From an uncultured Eubacteriales bacterium (lineage in GTDB: Bacteria; Acidobacteriota; Aminicenantia; Aminicenantales; Aminicenantaceae): DNA of 64,000 nt. The notes below the pieces were generated by a model. That model was not told the origin of the DNA, ran no database searches, and worked only from the letters and a program-made list of their open reading frames with translations. Location: NCBI GenBank assembly GCA_964429795.1, contig CAYSCW010000002.1, forward strand, positions 23,431-87,430, given 5' to 3'. The position numbers and the translations under genes are program-made. Shown piece by piece: positions 3,090 through 55,512 of the stretch. Position 1 is the first letter of the stretch; each line of letters opens with the position of its first letter.

Positions 3090-3114
3090 TCCGCAAGGCC
3101 AGTCGCTCTTGGGT

Positions 3115-3172
3115 GATGCTGGAGGGGAACCGGCGCTATGACTGATTATATCTCTCATTTAGCTATCACCTG
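3115..3172. repeat. Partial copy (R0) of the mosaic intergenic repeat family: module E (GGAGGGGAACCGGCG) plus inverted, truncated module A
   Basis: 3120-3137 tggaggggaaccggcgcta matches 55407-55424. 3151-3170 tctctcatttagctatcacc matches the reverse complement of the module A consensus (ccctcatcattagctatcacggaaat) with a deletion. Confidence 0.45.
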
Positions 3173-3241
3173 AAAGGAGGCACTTCTCCTCTTTAATCAA
3201 TCCTTGAATTTTGGGGGATTGTATTGTATTTTAGATATGCT

Positions 3242-6537: not shown

Positions 6538-6562
6538 CTTCCCTGATCACGGAAATGGAAAT
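6538..6562. repeat. Possible degenerate fragment of repeat module A (inverted) in the ACT/OMP divergent promoter region
   Basis: tccctgatcacggaaatgg matches tccctcgtcattagctatcacggaaat (52690-52716) with an internal deletion. It is short and could be chance. Confidence 0.25.
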
Positions 6563-6638
6563 GCTATCCCACCTTCTTTTTTTCTTTGTGTTTGAATCCC
6601 GTGTTTTGGTATAATTCTGGTTTAATAAGGAGGAAAAA

Positions 6639-11414: not shown

Positions 11415-11475
11415 ATCCATCCGCTAGCTTTCTCGGATTTGGCTTGAGCAAGTATCTCCATTTCCGCGATAAACA

Positions 11476-13128
11476 ATGAACGCACTCATCATCGCTGCTA
11501 TCCTCATTGTCTGGCTCGTTCTGGGCTACAAGGTATACGGAAGTTTTATCGAAAAAAAAGTCGTGAAGATGGACAACTCCCGTCTAACTCCAGCCAAACA
11601 ATTCTTCGATGGTATAGACTACTCGCCGGCAAAGAAACCTCTTCTCTTTGGCCATCATTTCTCTTCCATTGCGGGAGCAGGGCCTATCCTGGGTCCGCTT
11701 CTGGGAGTTCTCTACTTTGGCTGGCTAGGAACGCTTCTATGGGTAGCTTTAGGCAGTATCTTCCTGGGAGCGGTGCATGATTATACTTCGCTCATGACAT
11801 CTGTTCAGAACAAGGGAACATCTTTAGCCGATATTTCAGAGCGAACCCTGGGTTTGAGGACAAAGATTATTTTCTCTATTTTTATCTGGCTGACTTTGGC
11901 TATGGTGATTGCTGTTTTTGCCGTGGTGGCTGCGCAAACCCTTGTTTCTCAGCCTGAGATTGTAATACCCACCTTTGGTCTGATTTTCATCGCCATGATC
12001 TTCGGTTGGCTCATCTATAGGATAGGAATCAATGTTCCAATCGCCACTATTCTTGCCCTCTCCTTGCTCTCTATTCTTATTTACCTTGGACAGTTGTGTC
12101 CTATCCTGCCTCCAGCACAATTACTGGGGCTTTCTGCTCAGAGCTTTTGGTTTTATATTCTCATCATCTACAGTCTCTTCGCCTCTGCGCTTCCAGTCTG
12201 GTTCCTTCTTCAACCGCGTGATTATATCAGTACCTGGATTCTCTTCTTAGGCTTGGGACTGGGTTATCTGGGTCTCGTGATTTCTCATCCCTCCATCAAT
12301 GCTCCCGCTTTTGTCTCTTTCTCCAGCACAGGAGGTCCGCTCTGGCCCATCCTGTTCGTGATCGTTGCCTGCGGCGCCATCTCTGGTTTTCATTCCGTGG
12401 TGGCAGGAGGAACAACTGCCAAGCAGTTGCCCGATGAGGCCAGCGGCAAGTTGATCGGATTTGGGGGCATGGTGACAGAGGCAGCCTTGGCAGGCCTGGT
12501 GATATTCATTGCTTCAAGCGCCTTGGTTTGGGATCCCAAAGGAGCAGAAAGCCCGTTTGGTTTTCAATACCTGATGACCTCCCTCGGTGATCCCATCCGT
12601 GCTTTTGCCACTGGATATGGAAGATTTATTTCCTCGCTTCCCGGTCTCACTCTCGCCATAGGGCTTTTCTTTGGCATGGTGATGCTCAATGCCTTTGTTC
12701 TGACTACACTGGACACAGGTACCAGATTAGGGCGGTTCATTTTTTCAGAGCTTCTCAGCCACAAGGTTCCTTTTTTCAAGAACAGATGGATCAGCTCAGC
12801 TGTGATCCTCATTTTTGCTGCGGTGCTGGGAGGAACCGAAGGATACAAAGCGATCTGGCCAGTTTTTGGAGCATCAAACCAACTTGTGGCTGCCCTGGCT
12901 TTGATCGTGGTGTCCTCTTATATTGTGGGGATAAAAAGTCCCAAAAAGTACACAGTTTACCCGGCTATTTTTATGCTGGTTACAACCATAGCGGCTCTGC
13001 TCTACCAAGGATTTCATTTCTTTCAGGCGAAAAGCTATCTTCTGGGAAGTATGGCCGTTGTACTAGTGGCACTTGCTGCGGTCATTGTCTATGATGCCCG
13101 GGCAATTCTTTTTAAGGCTGATAACTAA
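11476..13128 (+). CDS. cstA: Carbon starvation protein A family peptide transporter
   Basis: HHFSSIAGAGPILGPLLGVLYFGWLGTLLWV, the CstA signature. 550 aa, polytopic. Confidence 0.9.
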   Translation: MNALIIAAILIVWLVLGYKVYGSFIEKKVVKMDNSRLTPAKQFFDGIDYSPAKKPLLFGHHFSSIAGAGPILGPLLGVLYFGWLGTLLWVALGSIFLGAVHDYTSLMTSVQNKGTSLADISERTLGLRTKIIFSIFIWLTLAMVIAVFAVVAAQTLVSQPEIVIPTFGLIFIAMIFGWLIYRIGINVPIATILALSLLSILIYLGQLCPILPPAQLLGLSAQSFWFYILIIYSLFASALPVWFLLQPRDYISTWILFLGLGLGYLGLVISHPSINAPAFVSFSSTGGPLWPILFVIVACGAISGFHSVVAGGTTAKQLPDEASGKLIGFGGMVTEAALAGLVIFIASSALVWDPKGAESPFGFQYLMTSLGDPIRAFATGYGRFISSLPGLTLAIGLFFGMVMLNAFVLTTLDTGTRLGRFIFSELLSHKVPFFKNRWISSAVILIFAAVLGGTEGYKAIWPVFGASNQLVAALALIVVSSYIVGIKSPKKYTVYPAIFMLVTTIAALLYQGFHFFQAKSYLLGSMAVVLVALAAVIVYDARAILFKADN

Positions 13129-26414: not shown

Positions 26415-26440
26415 GAAATTAACTTGGCATGTTAGCACCT

Positions 26441-26605
26441 CCATTTCCGTGAGAGCTAATGATGAGGGATATAATCTGTCACAGCGCCTGGTGCCTCTCC
26501 TCCCTCGCCAAAGACCCTCTTACCCGCCACCATGGGCTTCGGAAAGACAGTAACCGTCGCCTCTCTACCTTGCCGGATGAAATATTTTCACTCATCACGT
26601 AAATG
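26441..26605. repeat. Mosaic intergenic repeat copy R1 (module A forward, module C, module B inverted) between the pqqD-like gene and def
   Basis: 26441-26470 ccatttccgtgagagctaatgatgagggat is module A. 26504-26542 ctcgccaaagaccctcttacccgccaccatgggcttcgg is module C (compare 52620-52660). 26571-26603 ccggatgaaatattttcactcatcacg is the reverse complement of module B (compare 52564-52590 and 47411-47440). Confidence 0.55.
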
Positions 26606-26805
26606 AAGATGCTTCCGCTTGGAATCAGGATTTGGATCAACTAACGAGGTGTCAGGCTTCCTTAAGAACGGAAACCTAAAGCAAGAATATCGCCTTGGCA
26701 TGACATAGATAATGAAGTCTGATCCTGATGTTGTCCAAGTCTCAAGACATAACAGAAGTTGAACAAAGAGTGATTTTTTTTTAAAATAAAGGTTAGTAGA
26801 GAAAA

Positions 26806-32722: not shown

Positions 32723-35263
32723 CTACGCATAGTCAAGACCCACATCTTTCATCTGGTCAAACTGTAGATATCTATAGATTTCTCGCTTCCTGGGCTGAAT
32801 TTTCTTCTCATAGATGGAGAAATATTCGTCAGGTGTGGGAAGTTTGTTTGAAAGGGCCGCTATGGCAGCCAGTTCAGCAGAGCCAAGATAGACGCGGGCA
32901 TTGTCGCCCATTCGGTTGTCAAAGTTACGTGTGGAAGTAGAGATGACGGTTGCTCCAGGTCTGACTCTGGCCTGATTTCCCATACAGAGCGAACAACCAG
33001 GAATTTCTGTACGAGCTCCTACGCTGGCATAGATGGAATAATATCCCTCTCTCTGGAGTTGAGCTCTGTCCATCTTGGTGGGGGGAGTCAGCCAAATACG
33101 TGTCTGAAGATAACCTTCTCCATCGAATATCTTTCCAGCCGCCCGAAAATGACTGATGTTGGTCATGCACGACCCGATGAATATCTCATCGATCTTGTCT
33201 CCCGCTACCTCAGAGAGAACTTTCACGTCGTCTGGATCATTGGGGCAGGCTACGATAGGCTCTTTGATATCTTGGAGGTTGATTTCCAGGACTGCCGCAT
33301 AATCGGCATTCTTATCCCTTTGTAGAAGCTTTGGATTGTCCAGCCATCCCTTGCAGGCTTCAATCCTTCTCTGCAAAGTGTCACCATCTTGGTATCCTTC
33401 CCTGATCATCTTTTCCATCAGAGCCACGTTGCTTCTGATGTATTGGGCCGCACTTTCTATGCTGAGTGCGACCGTTGCCGCTGCGGCAGATCGCTCTGCA
33501 CTGGCGTCAGTGAGCTCGTAGGCCTGTTCGACTGGCAAATCGGGTAGACCATCTATCTCTAAAACCCGGCCATTAAAAATATTCTTCTTATCCTTTTTTT
33601 CCACTGTGAGCAAACCCTCTTGGATTGCAAAATAAGGAATGGCGTTGACCACATCCCGAAGTGTTATCCCGGGTCGAAGTTTCCCGCTGAATTTGACTAA
33701 CACTGACTCAGGCATGTCCAGCGGCATAAACCCGAGAGTGCCCGCAAATGCCACCAGACCTGAGCCTGCAGGAAAGCTCAGTCCTATTGGGAACCGAGTA
33801 TGCGAATCACCTGCCGTTCCCAGTGTATCGGGAATCAACAGGCGATTCAACCAGGAATGGATAACACCATCACCGGGTTTGAGGGAAACGCCCTTACGGT
33901 CGGTGATGAATCGGGAGAGCGATTTATGCATCTTGACGTCTGGAAGTTTGGGGTAAGCGGCTGTGTGACAGAAAGATTGCATGAAGAGCTCTGTCTGAAA
34001 TTCTAGACAGGCCAATTCTTTGAGTTCATCTGCAGTCATGGGACCTGTTGTATCCTGAGAGCCGACTGTGGTCATCTTTGGTTCACAGGCTGTTCCGGGA
34101 AGAACACCTTCCACACCACAGGCTTTCCCTACGATCTTCTGGGCTAGAGAGAAGCCCTGTCCTTCTTTAGGAGAAGGCCATTCCATTTTGGTGAAAAAAT
34201 TAGCCTCTCCCATGCCTAGCTCTTTTCGAGCTTTTTCGGTCAGGGAACGGCCGATGATGAGGTTGAGCCGTCCACCTGCTCGGAACTCATCCTTAAGTGT
34301 AGCTGGTTTGAGCTTGAAGGAGGCAATCTTTTCTCCAGATTCGCTGGTGATAGTCTGTGATTTCGAATCAATGACAATAACAGCCCCGGTTTCCATCTTC
34401 GACACATCGCACATAAGAGGAAGCCCCCCGGAATCTTCAACTGTGTTGAAAAAGATGGGGGCGATCAGACCGCCGATGACCACTCCCCCTCTTCTCTTAT
34501 TTGGGACGTAGGGGATATCCTCGCCGATATGCCACATCAAGGAATTGCAGGCGGATTTCCGGGATGAACCTGTCCCCACTACATCTCCCATAAAGGCCAC
34601 TCGTGCTCCTTGTTCACGAAATTCTTTGATGGTATCCATTCCTCCTGGAAACCGTGTCTCTCCCATGGAGAGGGCATGGAGAGGGATATCCGGTCGGCTC
34701 CACGCATGCTTTGCTGGAGAGAGATCATCGGTATTGGTTTCCTCATCTACCTTAAAGACTTTAAGGATCAATCTTTCTGGAAACTTTGGCTTCTTAAGAA
34801 ACCATTCGGCTTGGGCCCAAGAACGAAGGACATTCTCGGCATAGGGATTGCTTTTGGCCATACGTACTATTTCATCGAAGCCACCGTAGACAAGGGTGAT
34901 CATTTTGAGAGCTGCTGCTGCATCTTCGGCCAGTTCTTCGTCCTGAAGTAACTCCAAAAGAGGCTGGACGTTGAATCCTCCCAGCATGGTACCCAAGATA
35001 GTCACTGCTTTTTTCTTGGATACAACAGGAGAGAATGCGCCTCCCTTGGCCACTTTTGTTAACCATCCAGCTTTAACTCTTGCTGCAGGGTCAACTCCGG
35101 GTGCCACTCGGTTCATCAGAAGATCCAGAAGGAGTTCTCCCTTACTCCTGGGGGGATTTTCCAAGAGGGCACAGATTTCTTCCGTTTCCTCTGGGGATAA
35201 AGGCAGAGGAGGGATACCTTGTTTTTGCCGCTGGGATTCATGTTCAAAGTAGGCTTTTAACAT
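32723..35263 (-). CDS. acnB: Aconitate hydratase B (bifunctional aconitase 2 / 2-methylisocitrate dehydratase)
   Basis: 846 aa. N-terminal HEAT-like domain MLKAYFEHESQRQKQGIPPLPLSPEETEEICALL..., swivel and Fe-S domains. The Cys ligands lie in ...GSCMTN... and ...GCSLCMGNQARV... AcnB architecture. Confidence 0.88.
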   Translation of the reverse strand: MLKAYFEHESQRQKQGIPPLPLSPEETEEICALLENPPRSKGELLLDLLMNRVAPGVDPAARVKAGWLTKVAKGGAFSPVVSKKKAVTILGTMLGGFNVQPLLELLQDEELAEDAAAALKMITLVYGGFDEIVRMAKSNPYAENVLRSWAQAEWFLKKPKFPERLILKVFKVDEETNTDDLSPAKHAWSRPDIPLHALSMGETRFPGGMDTIKEFREQGARVAFMGDVVGTGSSRKSACNSLMWHIGEDIPYVPNKRRGGVVIGGLIAPIFFNTVEDSGGLPLMCDVSKMETGAVIVIDSKSQTITSESGEKIASFKLKPATLKDEFRAGGRLNLIIGRSLTEKARKELGMGEANFFTKMEWPSPKEGQGFSLAQKIVGKACGVEGVLPGTACEPKMTTVGSQDTTGPMTADELKELACLEFQTELFMQSFCHTAAYPKLPDVKMHKSLSRFITDRKGVSLKPGDGVIHSWLNRLLIPDTLGTAGDSHTRFPIGLSFPAGSGLVAFAGTLGFMPLDMPESVLVKFSGKLRPGITLRDVVNAIPYFAIQEGLLTVEKKDKKNIFNGRVLEIDGLPDLPVEQAYELTDASAERSAAAATVALSIESAAQYIRSNVALMEKMIREGYQDGDTLQRRIEACKGWLDNPKLLQRDKNADYAAVLEINLQDIKEPIVACPNDPDDVKVLSEVAGDKIDEIFIGSCMTNISHFRAAGKIFDGEGYLQTRIWLTPPTKMDRAQLQREGYYSIYASVGARTEIPGCSLCMGNQARVRPGATVISTSTRNFDNRMGDNARVYLGSAELAAIAALSNKLPTPDEYFSIYEKKIQPRKREIYRYLQFDQMKDVGLDYA

Positions 35264-44969: not shown

Positions 44970-47063
44970 TTATTCTTGCTCAGGCTTGATCCGTCCTTCT
45001 TTGATCGCCTCTTGGATGATTTTCTGCTGGAGATGGCTGGGGACTTCTTCGTAATGGGAAAACTCCATAAGGAATGAACCTCTGCCTCCTGTTATAGAGG
45101 TTAACGATGGTTCAAAATCCAGCATCTCTGCCATAGGAACTTGGGCCTTGATGATGCGTAGATTTCCCTTCTGTTCCATGCCCTGCACTTTTCCACGGCG
45201 GCCGTTGAGGTTTCCCATGAGATCTCCCATGTATGCCTCTGGCGTGTAGACTTCAACATTCATGATCGGCTCGAGAATGGTGGGCTTGGCCTCCTTCATT
45301 CCTTTCTTGAAGGCCATGGAGGCTGCGATCTTGAAGGCGATATCAGAGGAATCAACTTCATGGAAAGAGCCATCATAAAGGACAACTTTGAAATCCATAG
45401 TCGGATATCCAGCCACGACTCCCTTTTTCTTGGCTTCCTTGATGCCTTTCTCTATGGAAGGGATAAAATTTTTAGGTATGGCCCCCCCGAAGATCTTATC
45501 CTCAAACTCAAAATCTTTTCCTCTGGCAAGGGGCTCCATCTTGATTTTTACATCCCCGTATTGTCCCCTTCCTCCAGTCTGTTTTTTGTACTTTCCCTGT
45601 ACATCAGAACGTCCCTTTATGGTTTCTTTGTAAGGGATTTTTGGAGGCTTCAGAACCACATCCACGTTGTATCTCTTTTTCAAGCGATCGGCGATGATTT
45701 CCACATGGAGCTGGCCATTTCCGGATATGATCAACTCGTTCGTTTCCGAGTCTCTTTCTATCTTTGCCGTGGGATCCTCCTCTGAGATACGGTGGGTAGC
45801 CTGGGAAATACGGTCTTCGTCGGCTCGTGTCTTTGGTTCAATGGCAAATGATATGGAAGGCTCGGGAAATTTGATAGGCGGAAATTCAATCCCGTTTCCC
45901 TTAACGCATAGAGTGTCGCCGGTGTATGTGGTTTTCAGCTTGGTTGTGGCCACGATATCACCCACTTTTGCCTCTCCTGCAGGGATTTGTTCTTTGCCTT
46001 TGAGGAAGAACAGCCCCCCCAGTTTCTCGTCTATATCATGATTGGTGTTGTACACAGTGGAATCAGGGCCAACCTTTCCCGAGAATATCCTCAAAAGGGA
46101 GATACGTCCAGTGTAGGGATCGGAGATAGTTTTGAAGACCAACGCAGAAAATGGGCCATCCAAATTGGGTTTGATTGTTTCTTCTTTTCCTTTGACGGTT
46201 GCTGCGATTTCTGCTCTATCTAAGGGGGAAGGCATGTAAGTGGTGATTCCATCCAGAATAGGCTGGATTCCCACGTTCGTCAGAGCCGAAGCCACAAAAA
46301 CGGGAAAAAGATGACGGGAGAGGACGGCCTTCTTAAGGCCTTCCCGTAGTTCTTCAGACGTTAGTTTACCCTTCTCGAAGTACTGTTCCATCAATTGTTC
46401 ATCGTTTTCTGCCACCATCTCTGTGAGCTCTTCGGCTTTCTTCTCAACTTCGGACTTGAGGTTCTCGGGCACTTCGGTCTCTTTGAATTTTCCGCTTTCG
46501 TCTTTCTCGAAAGTGAAGGCCTTTTTCTCCACAAGGTCTATGATTCCCGAAAAATTCTTCTCTTTGCCGATGGGGAGTTGAATCGGAACAGCCTGCCGGC
46601 CGAAAAATTGTTGAATGGAATCAAGGGTCCGTTGATAATCCGCATTTTCTCTATCCAGCTTATTGATGGTGATGATCCGAGGAAGATTGAATTCTTCCAG
46701 CATTTCCCAAACCTTCTCCGTTCCTACTTCCACTCCTGCTGCTCCACAGACTATAACCACTCCTCCATCTACAGCTCTTAAACAAGCTCTTGTATCCCAA
46801 AGGAAGTTTGTGTATCCAGGGCAATCTATAATGTTGATCTTATGGTTGTTCCAATCCAAATAACATACGGCAGAGTTTATCGAAATCTGCCTTTCAATTT
46901 CCTCTGGATCATAATCAGTGATGGTATTTCCTTTTTCAACTTTAGCCAGCCTGGAAGTTATCCCTGCATTAAAAAGGAAAACGGATGTCATGGATGTTTT
47001 TCCTGAAGAACCATGTCCAATCATGGCGACGTTTCTTATTCTCTCAGGGGAATAATCTTTCAT
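44970..47063 (-). CDS. Elongation factor G paralog with non-canonical G domain (P-loop GHGSSGKT; switch II DCPGY instead of DTPGH)
   Basis: 697 aa. Full EF-G domain order, aligning along its length to canonical EF-G (HKINIIDCPGYTNF vs HRINIIDTPGHVDF; NKLDR G4 motif present). It is not in an rpsL-rpsG-fusA-tuf context. Confidence 0.85.
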   Translation of the reverse strand: MKDYSPERIRNVAMIGHGSSGKTSMTSVFLFNAGITSRLAKVEKGNTITDYDPEEIERQISINSAVCYLDWNNHKINIIDCPGYTNFLWDTRACLRAVDGGVVIVCGAAGVEVGTEKVWEMLEEFNLPRIITINKLDRENADYQRTLDSIQQFFGRQAVPIQLPIGKEKNFSGIIDLVEKKAFTFEKDESGKFKETEVPENLKSEVEKKAEELTEMVAENDEQLMEQYFEKGKLTSEELREGLKKAVLSRHLFPVFVASALTNVGIQPILDGITTYMPSPLDRAEIAATVKGKEETIKPNLDGPFSALVFKTISDPYTGRISLLRIFSGKVGPDSTVYNTNHDIDEKLGGLFFLKGKEQIPAGEAKVGDIVATTKLKTTYTGDTLCVKGNGIEFPPIKFPEPSISFAIEPKTRADEDRISQATHRISEEDPTAKIERDSETNELIISGNGQLHVEIIADRLKKRYNVDVVLKPPKIPYKETIKGRSDVQGKYKKQTGGRGQYGDVKIKMEPLARGKDFEFEDKIFGGAIPKNFIPSIEKGIKEAKKKGVVAGYPTMDFKVVLYDGSFHEVDSSDIAFKIAASMAFKKGMKEAKPTILEPIMNVEVYTPEAYMGDLMGNLNGRRGKVQGMEQKGNLRIIKAQVPMAEMLDFEPSLTSITGGRGSFLMEFSHYEEVPSHLQQKIIQEAIKEGRIKPEQE

Positions 47064-47183
47064 CTTAGAGCCTCCCTATGGAATGGAAAACTTGGTTTTA
47101 AGATGCAGGAAATCTTCTTTGCCAAAGAGGCAAGCAACGAATATGATACAATAAAATCTACTCTCTTCTCAAGGTATTTTTTG

Positions 47184-47490
47184 CAGTATGTAAGCATCCC
47201 CATTTCCGTGATGCAGTAACAGTCAGGTAAGCTGATTCGTCAGCCCGCGGATTTTCCCCAGCGAGGAAAATCCGCTTATTCCTCGGCTCGCTCTCCTCTT
47301 CGAGGAACCATGCCCGCTCGCCTCCGGATGTCTTCCAACTCAGCTTACCTGACTGCTGTTAAAACTGTCACGGAAATAAGGGTGCTTCCTTGCAGTATCT
47401 CCATTTCCGCGATGAGTGAAAACATTTCATACGGTTAGGTAGTGAGACGGCGGTTCCCATCCCTCTGAAGGCCATGGTGGGAGGGTCTTT
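47184..47490. repeat. Mosaic intergenic repeat copy R2 (composite: R2a has a long inverted repeat flanking module D and an internal hairpin; R2b has module A-like + module B + inverted module C), abutting the rluD stop
   Basis: Each sub-element begins ttgcagtat(g/c)...catttccg (47181 and 47393). R2a arms 47203-47234 and 47339-47376 are imperfect inverted repeats. Internal hairpin GCGGATTTT-11nt-AAAATCCGC at 47247-47275. Module D 47230-47268 matches 55368-55406. Module B 47411-47465 matches 52564-52620. Confidence 0.6.
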
Positions 47491-48409
47491 AACCTGTAAT
47501 GCGTTCGATTTTATTCAAAAAATTTTTCAGATCCTCAGGGAGAGGGGATGAGAACATGACTCTTTTTCCTGAATCAGGGTGATGGAAGGAGATTTGAGCC
47601 GCATGGAGAAAGAGCCGGGGGGATTTGATTTTTTCCTTTCTGCGGCCGTAACGGCTGTCCCCGGCCACAGGGTGTCCTGCTGCTGCAAGATGAACTCTTA
47701 TCTGGTGGGTTCTTCCGGTGATGGGTTTTATTCTGAGTAAGGTGAATTTCTCCAGCTCTTTTTCCACACTATATTGAGTCTTGGCAGCACGGGGTTTTTT
47801 CGTCTTTGTCGACATTCTTCCTCCGTGCTTAGGATGGCGACCTAATGACCAGGTCATTTCACCCGATTTTTGAGGCATTCTTCCCCAGACAAGGCCGATG
47901 TAGACCTTTTCCACAGCCCTTTCTTTAAACTGACGCTGAAGACTACTGTGGGCTTTAAGGCTTCTGGCCACCACCATAACACCTGAGGTCTCTTTATCCA
48001 AACGATGGACGATTCCTGACCTTTCCACAGGACCGATTCCTTCTATATCAGGAAAATGATGGAGCAAAGCATTGACCAATGTCCCGCTCTTCACTCCTGC
48101 TCCGGGATGGACAACCAGTCCTGAAGGCTTGTCCACTACCAGGATATGATTATCGCTGTGTATGACTTTCAGAGGTATATTTTCTGGCTGTACATTTGGG
48201 ATGCCGTGGATTGTGTACTCTATCTCCACCCTGTCCCCAGGTTTCAAATGATAACTTGGCTTTGAGCCTTTTCCACTGATTAAAACCTTCTCTTCTTCGA
48301 TGAGGCTTTGAACCTGAGAGCGGCTCAGTTCTTTTATCTTGTGAGAGAGGAATACATCCAGCCTTTTATTTTCATCTGGAGAAGTGATGAGGAATTCCTT
48401 CTTAGACAC
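47489..48409 (-). CDS. rluD: RluA-family 23S rRNA pseudouridine synthase (RluD-like, with N-terminal S4 domain)
   Basis: S4-like KRLDVFLSHKI...SRSQVQSLIEE. Catalytic HRLDKETSG. ...GRTHQIRVHLA... Confidence 0.88.
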   Translation of the reverse strand: MSKKEFLITSPDENKRLDVFLSHKIKELSRSQVQSLIEEEKVLISGKGSKPSYHLKPGDRVEIEYTIHGIPNVQPENIPLKVIHSDNHILVVDKPSGLVVHPGAGVKSGTLVNALLHHFPDIEGIGPVERSGIVHRLDKETSGVMVVARSLKAHSSLQRQFKERAVEKVYIGLVWGRMPQKSGEMTWSLGRHPKHGGRMSTKTKKPRAAKTQYSVEKELEKFTLLRIKPITGRTHQIRVHLAAAGHPVAGDSRYGRRKEKIKSPRLFLHAAQISFHHPDSGKRVMFSSPLPEDLKNFLNKIERITG

Positions 48410-49199
48410 TTTTCTTTTTTTTGAGGAAAAAATAAAGACTTAACCCTCCCACCAGCCCTAGGATGCAGAAGAGCTGAGGGAGGGAAAGGCTGAGATAAGG
48501 TGAGGGGTTTTGGATGAGGAAGGCTTTATCCGCATGGTCCCCTCTGTAGAATTCAACTAAGTAGCGGATGATGGAATAGTTGATGATGTAGAAGGCAAAG
48601 ACCTGACCATCGAATTTTTTCTTTTTCAAGATGACGAAGAGGATGGCAAAGTTTAAAAAATTCAGCACAGACTCATAAAGCTGGGTGGGATGGATAGGGA
48701 TTTTAAGCGGAATTCCTGTCAAGTTGTGGGCGTATTCACTGTGAAACTCCACTCCCCAAGCCAAATCGCAGGCCCGTCCATAACAGCATCCTGCCGTGAA
48801 ACATCCTATCCGGCCAAATCCATGCCCCAAGGCCAGGGCTGGACCGATGATATCAGCTGCTTTCCAGGTTGGAATACGGTGTTTTCGGAAATACCACAGG
48901 GCGAAGAGGAAACCGACGGTCAATCCACCTTGGAAGACGCCCCCGGACCGGGCGAGGGAAAAGAGTTCTGAAGGATAGCGAACATAATAGGAGATGTTCC
49001 CCACAAAGAGGATGAGCTTGGCTCCGATCAAGGAGATGATAATGGTGTAAAAAGCCATATCGATCATGCGGGAAGCAGGAAGTCCCTTTTTCCTGGCTTG
49101 GACATAGAGAAACCAGAAGCCCATGCCCACACCCAAAGCCATCATGAATCCATAGGTATGGATGGTCAGAGGACCAATTTTGAAGAGGATTGGCAACAT
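48402..49199 (-). CDS. lgt: Prolipoprotein diacylglyceryl transferase
   Basis: MLPILFKIGPLTIHTYGFMMALG...IGPALALGHGFGRIGCFTAGCCYG..., the Lgt signature. Start reset to the ATG at 49199. 8-nt overlap with the rluD start. Confidence 0.9.
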   Translation of the reverse strand: MLPILFKIGPLTIHTYGFMMALGVGMGFWFLYVQARKKGLPASRMIDMAFYTIIISLIGAKLILFVGNISYYVRYPSELFSLARSGGVFQGGLTVGFLFALWYFRKHRIPTWKAADIIGPALALGHGFGRIGCFTAGCCYGRACDLAWGVEFHSEYAHNLTGIPLKIPIHPTQLYESVLNFLNFAILFVILKKKKFDGQVFAFYIINYSIIRYLVEFYRGDHADKAFLIQNPSPYLSLSLPQLFCILGLVGGLSLYFFLKKKKSV

Positions 49200-49201
49200 C
49201 T

Positions 49202-49675
49202 TTATTTCCTCTTGAACAACAGAAGAAAAATCAGAATCACTGCTCCCACACTCACGCTGGCATCCGCCACATTGAAGGAGGGCCAGTGCCATTTCTTAAT
49301 GTAGAAATCTAAGAAATCTATCACATATCCCCGCAAGATTCTGTCCATCAAGTTGCCCAAAGCACCGGCCAGGATCAAGGAGAGAGATATTTGCAAAAAT
49401 CTCTCTTGAGCAGAAGTTTTGAAAAAATAATAGAGGACTAGGAAAAAGGCAACTATCGAGGCTCCCATCAGAATATAATGGACCAACGGGCCAGGAGATC
49501 GGGAGAGAAAGCCGAAGATGGCTCCCCGGTTGTGAATATGAGTCAGGTTCAAGAAGCCAGGGATAACACAGTGGTGACTGAACAAGGGAAAGGTGTGGGA
49601 GACCCAGATTTTACTCGCCTGGTCGGTGATTATAATCAGAACAATAAGGAGAAAATAGGGAAATTTGTTTTTCAT
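49202..49675 (-). CDS. lspA: Lipoprotein signal peptidase (signal peptidase II)
   Basis: ...DQASKIWV...NRGAIFGF...[17 protein letters not shown]... ATGA overlap with the ileS stop. Confidence 0.9.
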
Positions 49676-52449
49676 ATCTCAATCTGGCTGACCACCTCTT
49701 CACATCTCTTGCAGAAGAGAGGGAAGCGGGAGCTTTTTCCCACATATGGGGAGTAATTCCAACATCTCTGGCATTTTTCCCCTTCAGCCTTGGTAACCTT
49801 GACCTTGATCTCCTCATCTTCAGTGGGTGTAAGATGAACTGCGGAGACGATAAAAAGGGAGGCCAAGTCTTTTTCGTGCTTTTCGAGAAGGCTCTCCTTG
49901 GAGGCAGGGATATCCAGAGTCACAGATGCCTCCAATGAGTTTCCGATAAGCTTCTCTTCTCTTGTTCTTTCCAGTTCCTTTAAAACCTTTTCTCTGACAG
50001 CGATCAGGTCTGCCCACTCGCTGAAGAGCTCATCCTCCAGCCATTTCTCTTTAAAAGAGGGGAAAAGCTCCAGATGGATGGATTCCTCCTTCCCCTCATA
50101 GTGCGGCATGGCTTCCCACGCTTCTTCTGAGGTAAAAGGCAGGATGGGGGCCATAAGCACGAGGCTCCATTTCAAGAGATAAAAGAGAGCTGTTTGGGCA
50201 GATCTTCGCAGCAGAGAGCTTTTTTTCGAACAATAGAGCCTGTCTTTGAGAACATCCAGATAGAATGCACTCAGATCTACAGTGAAAAAATTGTACAGCG
50301 CATGAAAGACGATGTGGAATTCATAATCTTCATAAGCCTTAAGGATTCTTCTCCCCTGCCGGGAGCATTTCTCCAGAATCCATTTATCCAGGAGATTCAT
50401 ATCTTCGTGAGCAACCATTTCTTCGTCAGGAATAAAATCGTAGAGATTCCCCAGAATGAATCTCCATGTGTTTCTGATCTTGCGATAAGCTTCCACCAGT
50501 CTCTGCAGAATCTCATTTCCGAATCGAGCATCTTCTTTGTAGTTAAGCATGGCCACCCAAAGCCGGAGGATTTCGGCCCCGTTCTGTGAAATGATTTCTT
50601 CCGGCTCGATGAAATTTCCCAGTGATTTTGACATTCCTCTCCCCTGCTCATCAAGGACAAAGCCATGAGTGATCACCGATCTATAAGGAGAGGCGTGCTT
50701 GGCAGCCAGACCGACAAAGAGGGAGCTGTTGAACCACCCTCTGTATTGATCGTGACCTTCCACGTAGAGATCAGAAGGCCAGGGCAGGTCCTCTCGTTTT
50801 CCCAGAACATTGTGGCTGGCTCCCGATTCAAACCAGACATCCAGGATGTTGTTTTCCTTATTGAATTTAGCTGATCCGCACTGTGAGCATTTGGTACCGG
50901 GTGGAAGAAGCTCCTCCGCATTCTTGTTGTACCAGGCTGTGGAGCCTTCTCTGGAGAAGATATCGGCTATTCTCAGAGTGATATCGTCTCCGGCTAAAAT
51001 CTGGGTGCAGTCTTGGCAATAGAAGGCAGGAATGGGCACGCCCCATGAACGCTGTCGGGATATACACCAATCCGGTCTTGCCGTGACCATGTTCGAAATC
51101 CTCTCCTCTCCCCAGGCCGGAATCCAGCGCACTTTTTTAATCTCTTGGAGCGCTTTTTTGCGAAGATCATTCTTGTCCATTGAGATAAACCACTGGGCTG
51201 TAGCCCTGAAGATCACCGGGTTTTTGCATCGCCAACAATGAGGATAGGAATGGACGATTTGGCCTACTTTGAGAAGGCTTCCCTCTTTTTTCATGTCTTC
51301 GATGATGACTTTGTTGGAGTCGAACACGTTCATCCCGCCGTATCTTTCGACCTGAGGTATAAAATTGCCCTTGCTGTCCACAGGAGTGTAGATATCCAGC
51401 TTGTAGGCCAATCCAGTCATATAATCCTCATAACCATGGCCGGGAGCGGTATGGACACAGCCTGTTCCCTGTTCAAGAGTGACATAATCGGCCAAGACAA
51501 AGACAGATTCTCGATCGATGAAGGGATGGCGGGCTTTGAGACCTTCCATTTCTTTTCCGAGAAAAGTGGTTAAGATCTTTGTCTTCTTTAGGCCCAGTTC
51601 CTCTGCTACGACTGGAATCAGCCTTTTGGCGGCGATGTAAACTTCGCTGTCCTCCTGGAAAGCGGCGTATTCATAGTCGGGATGGAAGGCGATAGCCAGA
51701 TTGGCAGGGAGAGTCCAGGGCGTTGTGGTCCAGATCAGGACAAAGACATTTTTCCCTTTCAACGAAGAAAACTTTTGGGAGAGGTCGGAGATTAAAGAGA
51801 ATTTCACATAGATAGATGGAGAGGGTCGATCTTTGTATTCGATCTCAGCTTCAGCCAGTGCTGTACGACAGTGGGGACACCAGTGAACGGGCCTTTTTCC
51901 TTTATAAACATTTTCAGAAGCAAAAAAAGCGGCCAGATGCCGAAGCACCTCCCCCTCATATTGGGGATCCATGGTTAGGTAAGGATTTTCCCATTCACCA
52001 AAGACTCCCAGTCTTTTAAATTGACCGCGCTGAATGTCAACATACTTGAGGGCGTATTTTTTGCACTCTTCCCTGATTTCTATGATGGACAGATCCTTCT
52101 TTTTATCTCCCAAGAGTTGGTCCACTTTGATCTCGATGGGAAGACCATGACAATCCCATCCCGGAAGATAGGGAGAGCGGAAATTCTGCATGGTTTTTGT
52201 CTTGACGATGAAATCCTTCAAAATCTTGTTGAGGGCTGTCCCAAGATGAATATTGCCGTTGGCATATGGCGGTCCATCATGAAGGACAAAGATAGGAGAG
52301 TTCTCCCTTATTTTCTGGATCTTCTTATAGAGACGCATACTTTCCCATTTTTTGATGAGTTCTGGTTCCCTCTGGGGAAGCTTGGCTTTCATGGAAAAGG
52401 AGGTTTGGGGAAGGTTCAAACTCTCCTTGATCTTTTCACTGCTTGACAT
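49672..52449 (-). CDS. ileS: Isoleucyl-tRNA synthetase (type 1, with C-terminal zinc finger)
   Basis: [23 protein letters not shown] (HIGH), KMSKS as GMSKSLGN, C-terminal CQRCWNY...CKRC. Confidence 0.95.
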
Positions 52450-52560
52450 AGTCTTTCTCCGCTAATCACCTGTTTTTTCTTTTTTATTATAAAAGAAGTT
52501 ATTTTATTACGCCATAAGAAAAAGTCAATAAAAGGGATCTCAACGTAAGTATTTCAAAAA

Positions 52561-52735
52561 CCATGATGAGTGAAGATATTTCATCCAGTAAGGTAGTTAG
52601 GCAGCAGTTGCCCTCCATCCTCGCCAAAGACCTTCCCACCCTCCGCCATGGGCTTCGGATGAACCGCAACCGCCGCTGGGACTGATCATCTCCCTCGTCA
52701 TTAGCTATCACGGAAATTGAGATGATTCCCATTTC
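52561..52735. repeat. Mosaic intergenic repeat copy R3 (module B forward, module C, module A inverted) between the nadB 3' end and the ileS 5' region
   Basis: 52564-52620 atgatgagtgaagatatttcatccagtaaggtagttaggcagcagttgccctccatcc is module B. 52620-52660 is module C. 52688-52717 is the reverse complement of module A. Confidence 0.55.
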
Positions 52736-55271: not shown

Positions 55272-55327
55272 TTGAGAAGATTATAATTTTTTCCTGTTTT
55301 TCAGTCAAATAAAGCTGGAAGAGCGAT

Positions 55328-55455
55328 AGCATCTCCATCTCCGTGATGATTGTAATGACAGTTGGGCAAGCTGAATCGTCAGCACGCGGATTTTCCCCAG
55401 CGAGGATGGAGGGGAACCGGCGTTGTCCCTCATCATTAGCTATCATGGAAATGCT
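55328..55455. repeat. Mosaic intergenic repeat copy R4 (module A-like forward, module D, module E, module A inverted) in the nadC / flippase-like divergent region
   Basis: 55331-55356 catctccatctccgtgatgattgtaatga and 55426-55453 gtccctcatcattagctatcatggaaat form terminal inverted repeats. Module D 55368-55406 matches 47230-47268. Module E tggaggggaaccggcgttg matches 3120-3137. Confidence 0.55.
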
Positions 55456-55512
55456 TTCTGGAGGAGATTCCCTGTTTGACATCTTCCAAGAAAAGCCATC
55501 TAATATACAAGA

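Follow-up and report, generated by a model that had tools for sequence, protein, structure and literature searches.

A MITE very probably inserted into an older relative in the rluD/EF-G spacer of an uncultivated Aminicenantes bacterium

Introduction

Why should rluD and EF-G be separated by 425 nt, from stop codon to start codon, in the genome of an uncultivated Aminicenantes (Acidobacteriota) bacterium? In the 64 000-nt stretch of DNA analysed here (the window), the minus strand carries, in order, ileS (49672–52449), lgt (48402–49292), rluD (47489–48409; product identified by PF00849 and S4) and EF-G (44970–47063). With the EF-G protein as query we collected 80 orthologous loci, almost all of which carry the label Aminicenantes or a near synonym, and in 66 genomes rluD directly precedes EF-G. 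The modal length of the spacer is about 105 nt, and in the closest genome (L002) it is 150 nt. The original prediction, made from the sequence of this locus, described a nested or tandem pair of elements from one repeat family, suggested that they had arrived by mobile insertion, and proposed that they might serve rluD as a terminator or insulator, or EF-G as a structured 5′ UTR. The start of EF-G at 47063 and a repeat abutting the rluD stop at 47489 can both be seen in the sequence, as claimed. The question is what fills the spacer, and whether it belongs to the regulation of either gene.

Results

A 200-bp element with terminal inverted repeats and a target-site duplication

The element that we call C1 spans 200 bp (47190–47389, minus strand), with the termini GTAAGCA... 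and ...TGCTTCC. Its terminal inverted repeats, gtAAGCATCCCCATTTCCGTGATG on the EF-G side (47190–47213) and ..GTCACGGAAATAAGGGTGCTTcc on the rluD side (47366–47389), pair with each other, and immediately outside them lie identical 9-bp copies of TTGCAGTAT (47181–47189 and 47390–47398). The base composition of C1 is foreign, with 54% GC versus 45.7% for the window. Repeat searches returned a perfect 16-nt inverted pair within C1 (47220–47235/47340–47355) and an outer 20-nt pair at 85% (47192–47211/47368–47387), which together form arms of roughly 44 nt. The inverted arms of the original prediction are therefore present, although the ends given as 47234 and 47339 were each off by one and should read 47235 and 47340. 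The hairpin that they enclose is also real but has 11 bp (GCGGATTTTCC/GGAAAATCCGC, 47247–47257/47265–47275) rather than the 9 bp proposed, and CCTCG (47281–47285) and CGAGG (47301–47305) were both found in the sequence. Only spurious ORFs of 42–68 aa overlap C1. Coding potential was rejected: the AUG in GGGCAUGG lacks conservation, and the helices differ by indels of 1 nt, which between subfamilies exclude a conserved reading frame in the family.

When both strands were folded, as the prediction had recommended, the 212-nt C1 region proved far more stable than shuffled sequences on either strand. The minus-strand fold reached −102.2 kcal/mol (z = −9.3) and the plus-strand fold −87.4 kcal/mol (z = −8.7), with 0 of 200 shuffles as good in each case. 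The folding (‘sense’) strand of C1 is the minus strand, the same as that of rluD and EF-G.

The termini define a family. The consensus AAGCATCyyyATTTCCGTGAT is present at both ends of C1 and of 13 other paired copies. A scan for inverted pairs with the terminal consensus AAGCATCCTTATTTCCGTGAT (the repeat consensus of the family termini is also written GKAAGCATCYYYATTTCCGTGAT) located such pairs at a distance of exactly 196 bp in the window and nine other contigs (10 loci); with the two outer bases (GT/GG ... AC/CC) these correspond to the 200-bp unit 47190–47389. Perfect 9/9 duplications at the same offset as in C1 flank the copies in L116, L145, L159 and L168, and L095 has a perfect 9/9 duplication whose offset differs by 1 nt. 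Six further copies retain 7–8 of the nine bases; 8/9 is seen in L150 (C1 offset) and in two L002 copies (other offsets). The chance of a 9/9 duplication at a fixed offset is about 4 × 10⁻⁶ per element. The closest relatives of C1 in our sample are the copies in L155 (94.9% identity) and L095 (93.8%).

C1 thus combines the features expected of a MITE, being short and non-coding, with terminal inverted repeats, a duplication of constant length, dispersed copies and an empty orthologous site (below). Because it is short, ends in repeats of about 24 bp, is flanked by a 9-bp duplication and has many copies, it is best explained as a complete MITE mobilized by a transposase whose staggered cuts are 9 bp apart. 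The mobilizing enzyme is hypothetical, since no autonomous element (matching terminal repeats plus a transposase) was found in the 2.4 Mb examined. No inverted terminal-repeat pair in the same 2.4 Mb was more than 361 bp apart, no transposase-like ORF recurred there, and a search of paired repeats up to 5 kb apart, recurrent ORF clusters and inward ORFs beside solo repeats gave nothing convincing.

C1 lies in the tip of a truncated relative

The rest of the insert, C2 (47391–47488, minus strand), is a remnant of about 98 of the 186 bp of a B-type MITE. It has one terminal repeat left (47391–47414) and ends at the rluD stop codon (TAA, 47489–47491), which it directly adjoins. C2 can be aligned to the right half of another copy in the window, B (26431–26616), whose duplication has decayed (aCTTGGcAT/gCTTGGaAT), and to a full-length 184-bp copy, L095 2829–3012, with the perfect 9-bp duplication GCATTTTCT. 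As eight of the nine bases duplicated around C1 are also the outermost bases of C2, C1 was inserted into the tip of C2, 8 nt inside its outer end. The ‘lead-in’ common to the two sub-elements is explained in the same way, by the 9-nt duplication followed by homologous terminal repeats; the repeated ttgcagtat does begin at 47181 as predicted, while its second copy starts at 47390 and not at 47393. The C2–C1 junction was seen again in an independent short-read contig that is broken inside C1. A nested pair drawn from one repeat family, as originally predicted, is therefore what the spacer contains. C2 by itself folds no better than shuffled sequences (z = +0.4 and +1.2 on the two strands), and it was rejected as an independent structure.

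The orthologous site is empty in the closest genome

The finding of the same sequence at orthologous loci had been named as what would speak against a mobile insertion. The comparison favours mobility. The sister genome L002 is collinear with window positions 35126–57340 at 90–93% nucleotide identity (about 92%), and it has 17 nt in place of window 47193–47485, so that a 293-nt insert is absent. About 26 nt at the L002 site differ from the window and are possibly a decayed remnant or trace of an older element; clean absence from L002 holds for C1 only. Nearly all of the 66 spacers lack the sequence. A covariance model of the C1 interior (below) matches one of the 65 other orthologous spacers, that of L074, in the opposite orientation, and a family terminus is present in the spacer of L006. 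The target-site duplication and the empty orthologous site together bear out the mobile insertion.

C1 is upstream of a conserved EF-G promoter

Outside the element, a promoter-like site for EF-G, TTGAGA-N18-TATCAT, reads from 47172 to 47143 on the minus strand. Its −35 box lies 9 nt from the C1 insertion point, with C1 upstream, and the adjacent A-tract was left intact. The motif is conserved in other Aminicenantes loci and in the empty-site genome L002, and the basal spacer is essentially a promoter and a leader (cTTGAGa-N18-TATcAT, then ATCCGTTGC). Within the approximately 105 nt upstream of EF-G (window 47064–47172; L002–L081) we observed a conserved TTGAGA-N18-TAT(T/C)AT with an extended TGT before the −10 box, and the conserved leader, about 75 nt long, starts with ATCCGTTGC across Aminicenantes. 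In most genomes the rluD stop lies only about 10–15 nt before the −35 box.

Since C1 is upstream of this promoter, it falls outside the EF-G 5′ UTR, and the proposed 5′ UTR structure is not borne out. Nor is an intrinsic rluD terminator. A terminator scan detected no terminator-like site on the minus strand of 46950–47600; after the element the gene strand continues ...CUUACAUACUGCAAAAAAUACC, an A-run and not a U-tract; and most relatives have no room for such a structure. Because their spacers of about 105 nt hold only the promoter and leader, there is normally no terminator there. On the plus strand, the P2 hairpin of the C1 interior followed by TTATTCCT scores as terminator-like. For a conserved cis-regulatory leader or riboswitch of EF-G, neither presence at orthologous loci nor a position after the promoter was found.

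The DNA just upstream of the EF-G promoter is a recurrent landing pad, occupied by a reversed family member in L074, a family terminus in L006 and unrelated repeats in other genomes. In L035, L080, L009, L018 and L064 the same spacer holds repeat families unrelated to C1. One of these is a GGGGACGTTCCCCAAGG...CCTTGGGGAACGTCCCC palindrome and another is built of AAAAAAGGGGACAGGCTACTTTTT units; a third, a GTCATTGCG...GCAATC palindrome, is also inserted in helices of the GC-rich core copies L100, L142, L174 and L187. Two distant genomes, L019 (7735–8055) and L039, have in common a stretch of about 120 nt just upstream of EF-G (GGCAAGCCGAT..CTGCTTCGTTGCA..GCGGTG..CACAGC..CTCGCA.CTAC.GCAA..TTGGC.CGTGAATAA). 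It has no Rfam match at E ≤ 1 and could be another small structured element.

Family members are dispersed, modular and mosaic

The prediction of further family copies in the window was confirmed by repeat searches, which gave members or fragments at 3107–3180, 6546–6568, 11448–11470, 26431–26616, about 52560–52729 and 55325–55458. Seven or eight loci of the family, each intergenic, lie in the 64 kb, a density of about one per 8 kb. They include two solo terminal repeats (6546–6568 and 11448–11470, the latter stopping 5 nt short of the ATG that opens the ORF at 11476), the full B-type copy of 186 bp with a 7/9 duplication (26431–26616), a copy damaged at its left end and lying upstream of ileS (locus D, about 52560–52729) and a chimeric copy of 134 bp with a 7/9 duplication (copy E, 55325–55458). 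Copy E, the R4 of the original prediction, is a chimera whose left part is of C1 type and gives way, within the P2 loop, to a ‘b’ module. As the same junction recurs in L170 and in the window fragment 3107–3180, copy E represents a propagating subfamily.

The absence of one arm from R4 had been taken to argue for DNA-level mosaicism rather than a strictly conserved RNA fold. R4 belongs to the chimeric deletion subfamily, and the mosaicism is real; what did not hold is the exclusion of a fold, because the C1 interior is conserved, covarying and strand-specific (below). Mosaicism is also apparent between window and L002. At locus D, window 52570–52710 (141 nt) corresponds to L002 4733–4769 (37 nt, a different module), and at locus E, window 55325–55458 (134 bp) corresponds to L002 1902–2120 (219 bp) at the same site, with a CTCTTCCAG-type duplication. 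The ends at both loci are the same in the two genomes while the interiors differ, and the decayed duplication is shared at one of them, a pattern suggestive of family members recombining with or converting one another, and not of independent insertions. L145 contains a 361-bp composite with a perfect duplication, and composite units can thus move as one.

Beyond the window, the C1-interior pattern was found in more than 120 metagenome stretches among the matches listed, many of them at contig ends; in the metagenome contigs L082–L201, a large share of the matches lay within 100 nt of a contig end. Assemblies of sediment metagenomes rich in Aminicenantes appear to break often because of this family. 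The contigs of the GC-rich copies carry genes 60–87% identical to, and syntenic with, Aminicenantes loci, so the family is seemingly confined to this lineage and spans 39–62% GC. No match to it was seen in viral contigs or plasmids, and a literature search by sequence and keyword returned no description of it.

Copies are intergenic, with divergent gene pairs (22) favoured over convergent ones (5), and in tandem gene contexts their orientation is unbiased (10 versus 16). An apparent orientation bias toward the downstream gene (58 versus 25) was rejected as an artefact of the way that divergent and convergent contexts were classed. In many GC-rich copies (e.g. L110 9302–9500, L112, L144, L164, L176, L188, L189 and L196), the outer helix ends ...GAGCC; a short U-rich run and TTGACA-N17-TATAAT come next, and a −10-like TAtgAT often precedes the first helix base of GC-rich copies by 5–8 nt. 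The adjacency of a downstream sigma-70 promoter, striking by eye, was set aside, being only weakly asymmetric (30/79 versus 18/79, and 15 versus 12 at a stricter cut-off).

The interior of C1 has a conserved, strand-specific core

Within C1, positions 47215–47365 form a predicted five-helix core on the minus strand. P1 (47218–47235/47340–47357) leads into a GA-rich internal loop, followed by P1b (47242–47245/47330–47333), P5 (47280–47287/47320–47328), P3 (47293–47307) and P2 (47247–47275). A covariance model built from 12 copies gave 94 hits; for the window core, the scores of model R1 were 177.6 bits (minus strand) and 32.5 bits (plus strand). In the alignment fitted to the model, on which the fold statistics mainly rest, 91.5% of paired cells were complementary, versus 74.8% in shuffles and at most 50% in slid controls, and 38 of the 50 pairs showed double changes. 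G·U outnumbers A·C tenfold in the core helices (300:30). In each of the 38 non-redundant copies the better fold is that of the strand equivalent to the window minus strand, by a mean of 15 kcal/mol; this strand is G-rich, which alone favours its predicted folding. Support from a structure-blind MAFFT alignment was weaker (75% of cells paired versus 69% in shuffles); P1, P1b, P3 and inner P2 held, and P5 was not recovered.

Two ‘invariant’ blocks of the core owe their constancy to the search pattern with which the copies were collected. The blocks GAGCGGGCAYGG and GAGCGRAG, however, are conserved although they lie outside that pattern, also in divergent copies found by the model only. Tandem G·A motifs and a third conserved junction block, YCGCUGGGG, are further features of the core. 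Copies are of at least three types with unrelated outer helices (GTCAGGTAAGCTGA, GGGTGAGGGTGGGGGG and GGCTCGGGTATGGG, each with its complement), and the junction blocks are common to all types.

Nothing in the whole window reached the gathering score of an Rfam 15 family, no hit was obtained at E ≤ 10 on 47150–47520, and a GC-rich homologue in L088 gave only chance-level hits (9–14 bits); no near-threshold score was obtained for twister, HEARO, Acido-1, Acido-Lenti-1 or other Rfam 15 families. Several resemblances were considered and dropped. A hammerhead core (CUGACGA ... GAAA) is a misfit in helix order and number and is scored by no Rfam model, and no Rfam model scores for a box C/D-like k-turn, a T-box, CsrA-sponge GGA motifs, an RNase P P4 helix (GAGGAAGUCC) or an HDV-like motif (CCUCGCUGG). 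A pseudoknot between the P2 loop (CUCGCU) and AGCGAG is unsupported, with divergent copies changing one side uncompensated.

These data suggest that the C1 interior carries a conserved RNA fold within the MITE family. Because the helices covary, the junctions are fixed, the pattern is strand-specific and Rfam 15 and the searched literature have no match, it is conceivable, though less likely than not, that the interior of about 150 nt is a previously undescribed structured RNA riding in several MITE shells across Aminicenantes of 39–62% GC. For the strand specificity we favour, tentatively, a functional RNA. Such a core could serve the element, as a regulator of or cofactor for the transposase, or the host, as a module for RNA processing or stability, as a scaffold that binds protein, or even as a ribozyme.

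Discussion

C1 is very probably a MITE that recently entered the end of C2, an older relative now truncated. Such a feature is ordinary in kind, and its family is undescribed. Other origins for the same sequence were considered. A multi-copy structured ncRNA gene or ribozyme might be the primary entity, transposition being only apparent and the terminal repeats being its outer RNA helix. The core statistics fit this: pairing and double changes in the model-fitted alignment, better folding of one strand in every non-redundant copy, the excess of G·U over A·C, and the blocks conserved outside the search pattern; moreover, GC-rich relatives have the core without the same terminal repeats. Yet 9-bp duplications and a unit of constant 200-bp length mark DNA transposition rather than the duplication of an RNA gene, orientation with respect to neighbouring genes is unbiased in tandem contexts, no conserved internal promoter was seen in the copies, and deletion and chimeric subfamilies that lack half the core still spread. 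We consider this very unlikely as the primary explanation, and it is compatible with a MITE rather than exclusive of it.

A conserved cis-acting RNA of the locus, whether a terminator or insulator of rluD or a leader structure of EF-G, is highly improbable. The very stable fold and its position between the two genes, on their strand, would suit such a role, and the terminator-like P2 hairpin with TTATTCCT could be cited for it, although that lies on the opposite strand. The sequence is nevertheless absent from the closest genome and recurs among the 66 spacers only as the reversed copy of L074 and the terminus in L006. C1 sits upstream of the conserved promoter, an A-run follows the structure on the gene strand, relatives manage with a modal spacer of promoter and leader only, and the same element adjoins unrelated genes in both orientations. 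Least credible of the three is a REP/BIME-like or IS200/IS605-derived palindrome (REPIN/PATE) moved as single-stranded DNA by an HUH (Y1) transposase, in which case the strand-specific fold would be a DNA hairpin signal or an omega-RNA-like scaffold. Mosaic modular units in alternating orientation do recall BIMEs, and strand asymmetry with G·T(U) pairs also suits the folding of single-stranded DNA. Elements of that kind, however, have sub-terminal hairpins and lack target duplications and long terminal repeats, both of which are regular here; no RAYT, TnpA(Y1) or TnpB-like gene recurs near the copies, and there is no Rfam omega-RNA or HEARO-type match.

With C1 taken as a MITE, the history of the spacer can be sketched from the sequences as follows. 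Two non-autonomous transposable elements (MITEs) from one Aminicenantes-wide family would have come to occupy it, the older, B-type C2 settling first between the rluD stop codon and the EF-G promoter. C2 would then have lost its rluD-proximal half, the deletion boundary at the stop codon being set probably by selection on the rluD reading frame. Later, a C1-type copy of 200 bp would have been pasted 8 nt inside the outer end of C2 by a transposase acting in trans, which would recognize the terminal repeats of about 24 bp and make the 9-bp staggered cuts behind the TTGCAGTAT duplication. We infer both the order of the C2 and C1 events and a DDE-type cut-or-copy-and-paste enzyme behind the C1 insertion. 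C1 would have tripled the spacer while leaving the promoter and proximal A-tract intact, and any rluD read-through transcript would have gained a very stable rod (−102 kcal/mol). The insertion was most likely near-neutral for the host, and its effects on rluD or EF-G expression are probably small.

The C1/C2 insertion accounts for the puzzling 425-nt spacer and removes a false lead from the annotation, as the insert serves neither rluD nor EF-G as a regulatory leader or terminator. With it, an abundant MITE superfamily is described for the first time in Aminicenantes (candidate division OP8), a lineage of uncultivated sediment bacteria; the superfamily is marked by shared terminal repeats, 9-bp duplications and interchangeable internal modules, by a preference for promoter-bearing intergenic DNA and by frequent breakage of metagenome assemblies. 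Why the family should retain a multi-helix core specific to one strand is the more interesting problem. If that core is a functional RNA, this would be a rare bacterial MITE family kept together by an RNA-level function, and a candidate for catalogues of structured non-coding RNAs.

Comparison with known systems

Small palindromic repeats of several kinds offer points of comparison. The Correia elements of Neisseria (CREE/NEMIS) are MITEs of 100–160 bp with terminal repeats of about 26 bp and internal-deletion subfamilies; they duplicate TA, are often found beside promoters, and give transcripts that form long hairpins and are processed. C1 and the Correia elements are thus both short MITEs with terminal repeats of similar length, deletion subfamilies and promoter proximity. 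They differ in the duplication (9 bp versus TA) and in phylum and have no sequence similarity, and no conserved multi-helix core is known from the Correia interior. ERIC/IRU and pneumococcal BOX elements are modular, intergenic, imperfect palindromes with presence/absence polymorphism, thought to act at the RNA level, and insertions or deletions at fixed internal points give rise to their size variants. Neither ERIC nor BOX, the latter a linear A-B(n)-C array, has regular 9-bp duplications or defined terminal repeats of about 24 bp; the C1 family shares their modular intergenic palindromes but has both of these features. REP sequences, as in BIMEs and REPINs (RAYT), are units of 20–40 nt that require a Y1 transposase and leave no target duplication. 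The C1 family is like REP/BIME in its mosaic palindromic units, intergenic location, occurrence in both orientations and high copy number, whereas the terminal repeats of about 24 bp and the 9-bp duplication of C1 do not fit the REP, REPIN and PATE classes.

A further relative in kind is MITEAba12 of Acinetobacter, which has 113 bp, a weak predicted structure (about −24 to −27 kcal/mol), outward promoters and an identified parent IS, ISAba12 (PMC6382973). Unlike MITEAba12, C1 has 200 bp, a fold of −102 kcal/mol and an interior that is conserved and covarying across the whole candidate class; no parent IS was found for it, and the two have no sequence similarity. In other respects the resemblance is close: both are short and non-coding with terminal inverted repeats and 9-bp duplications, both are of near-fixed length in many dispersed copies, with the duplications decayed in older ones, and both occupy intergenic sites near promoters, with mobilization in trans presumed (PMC6382973).
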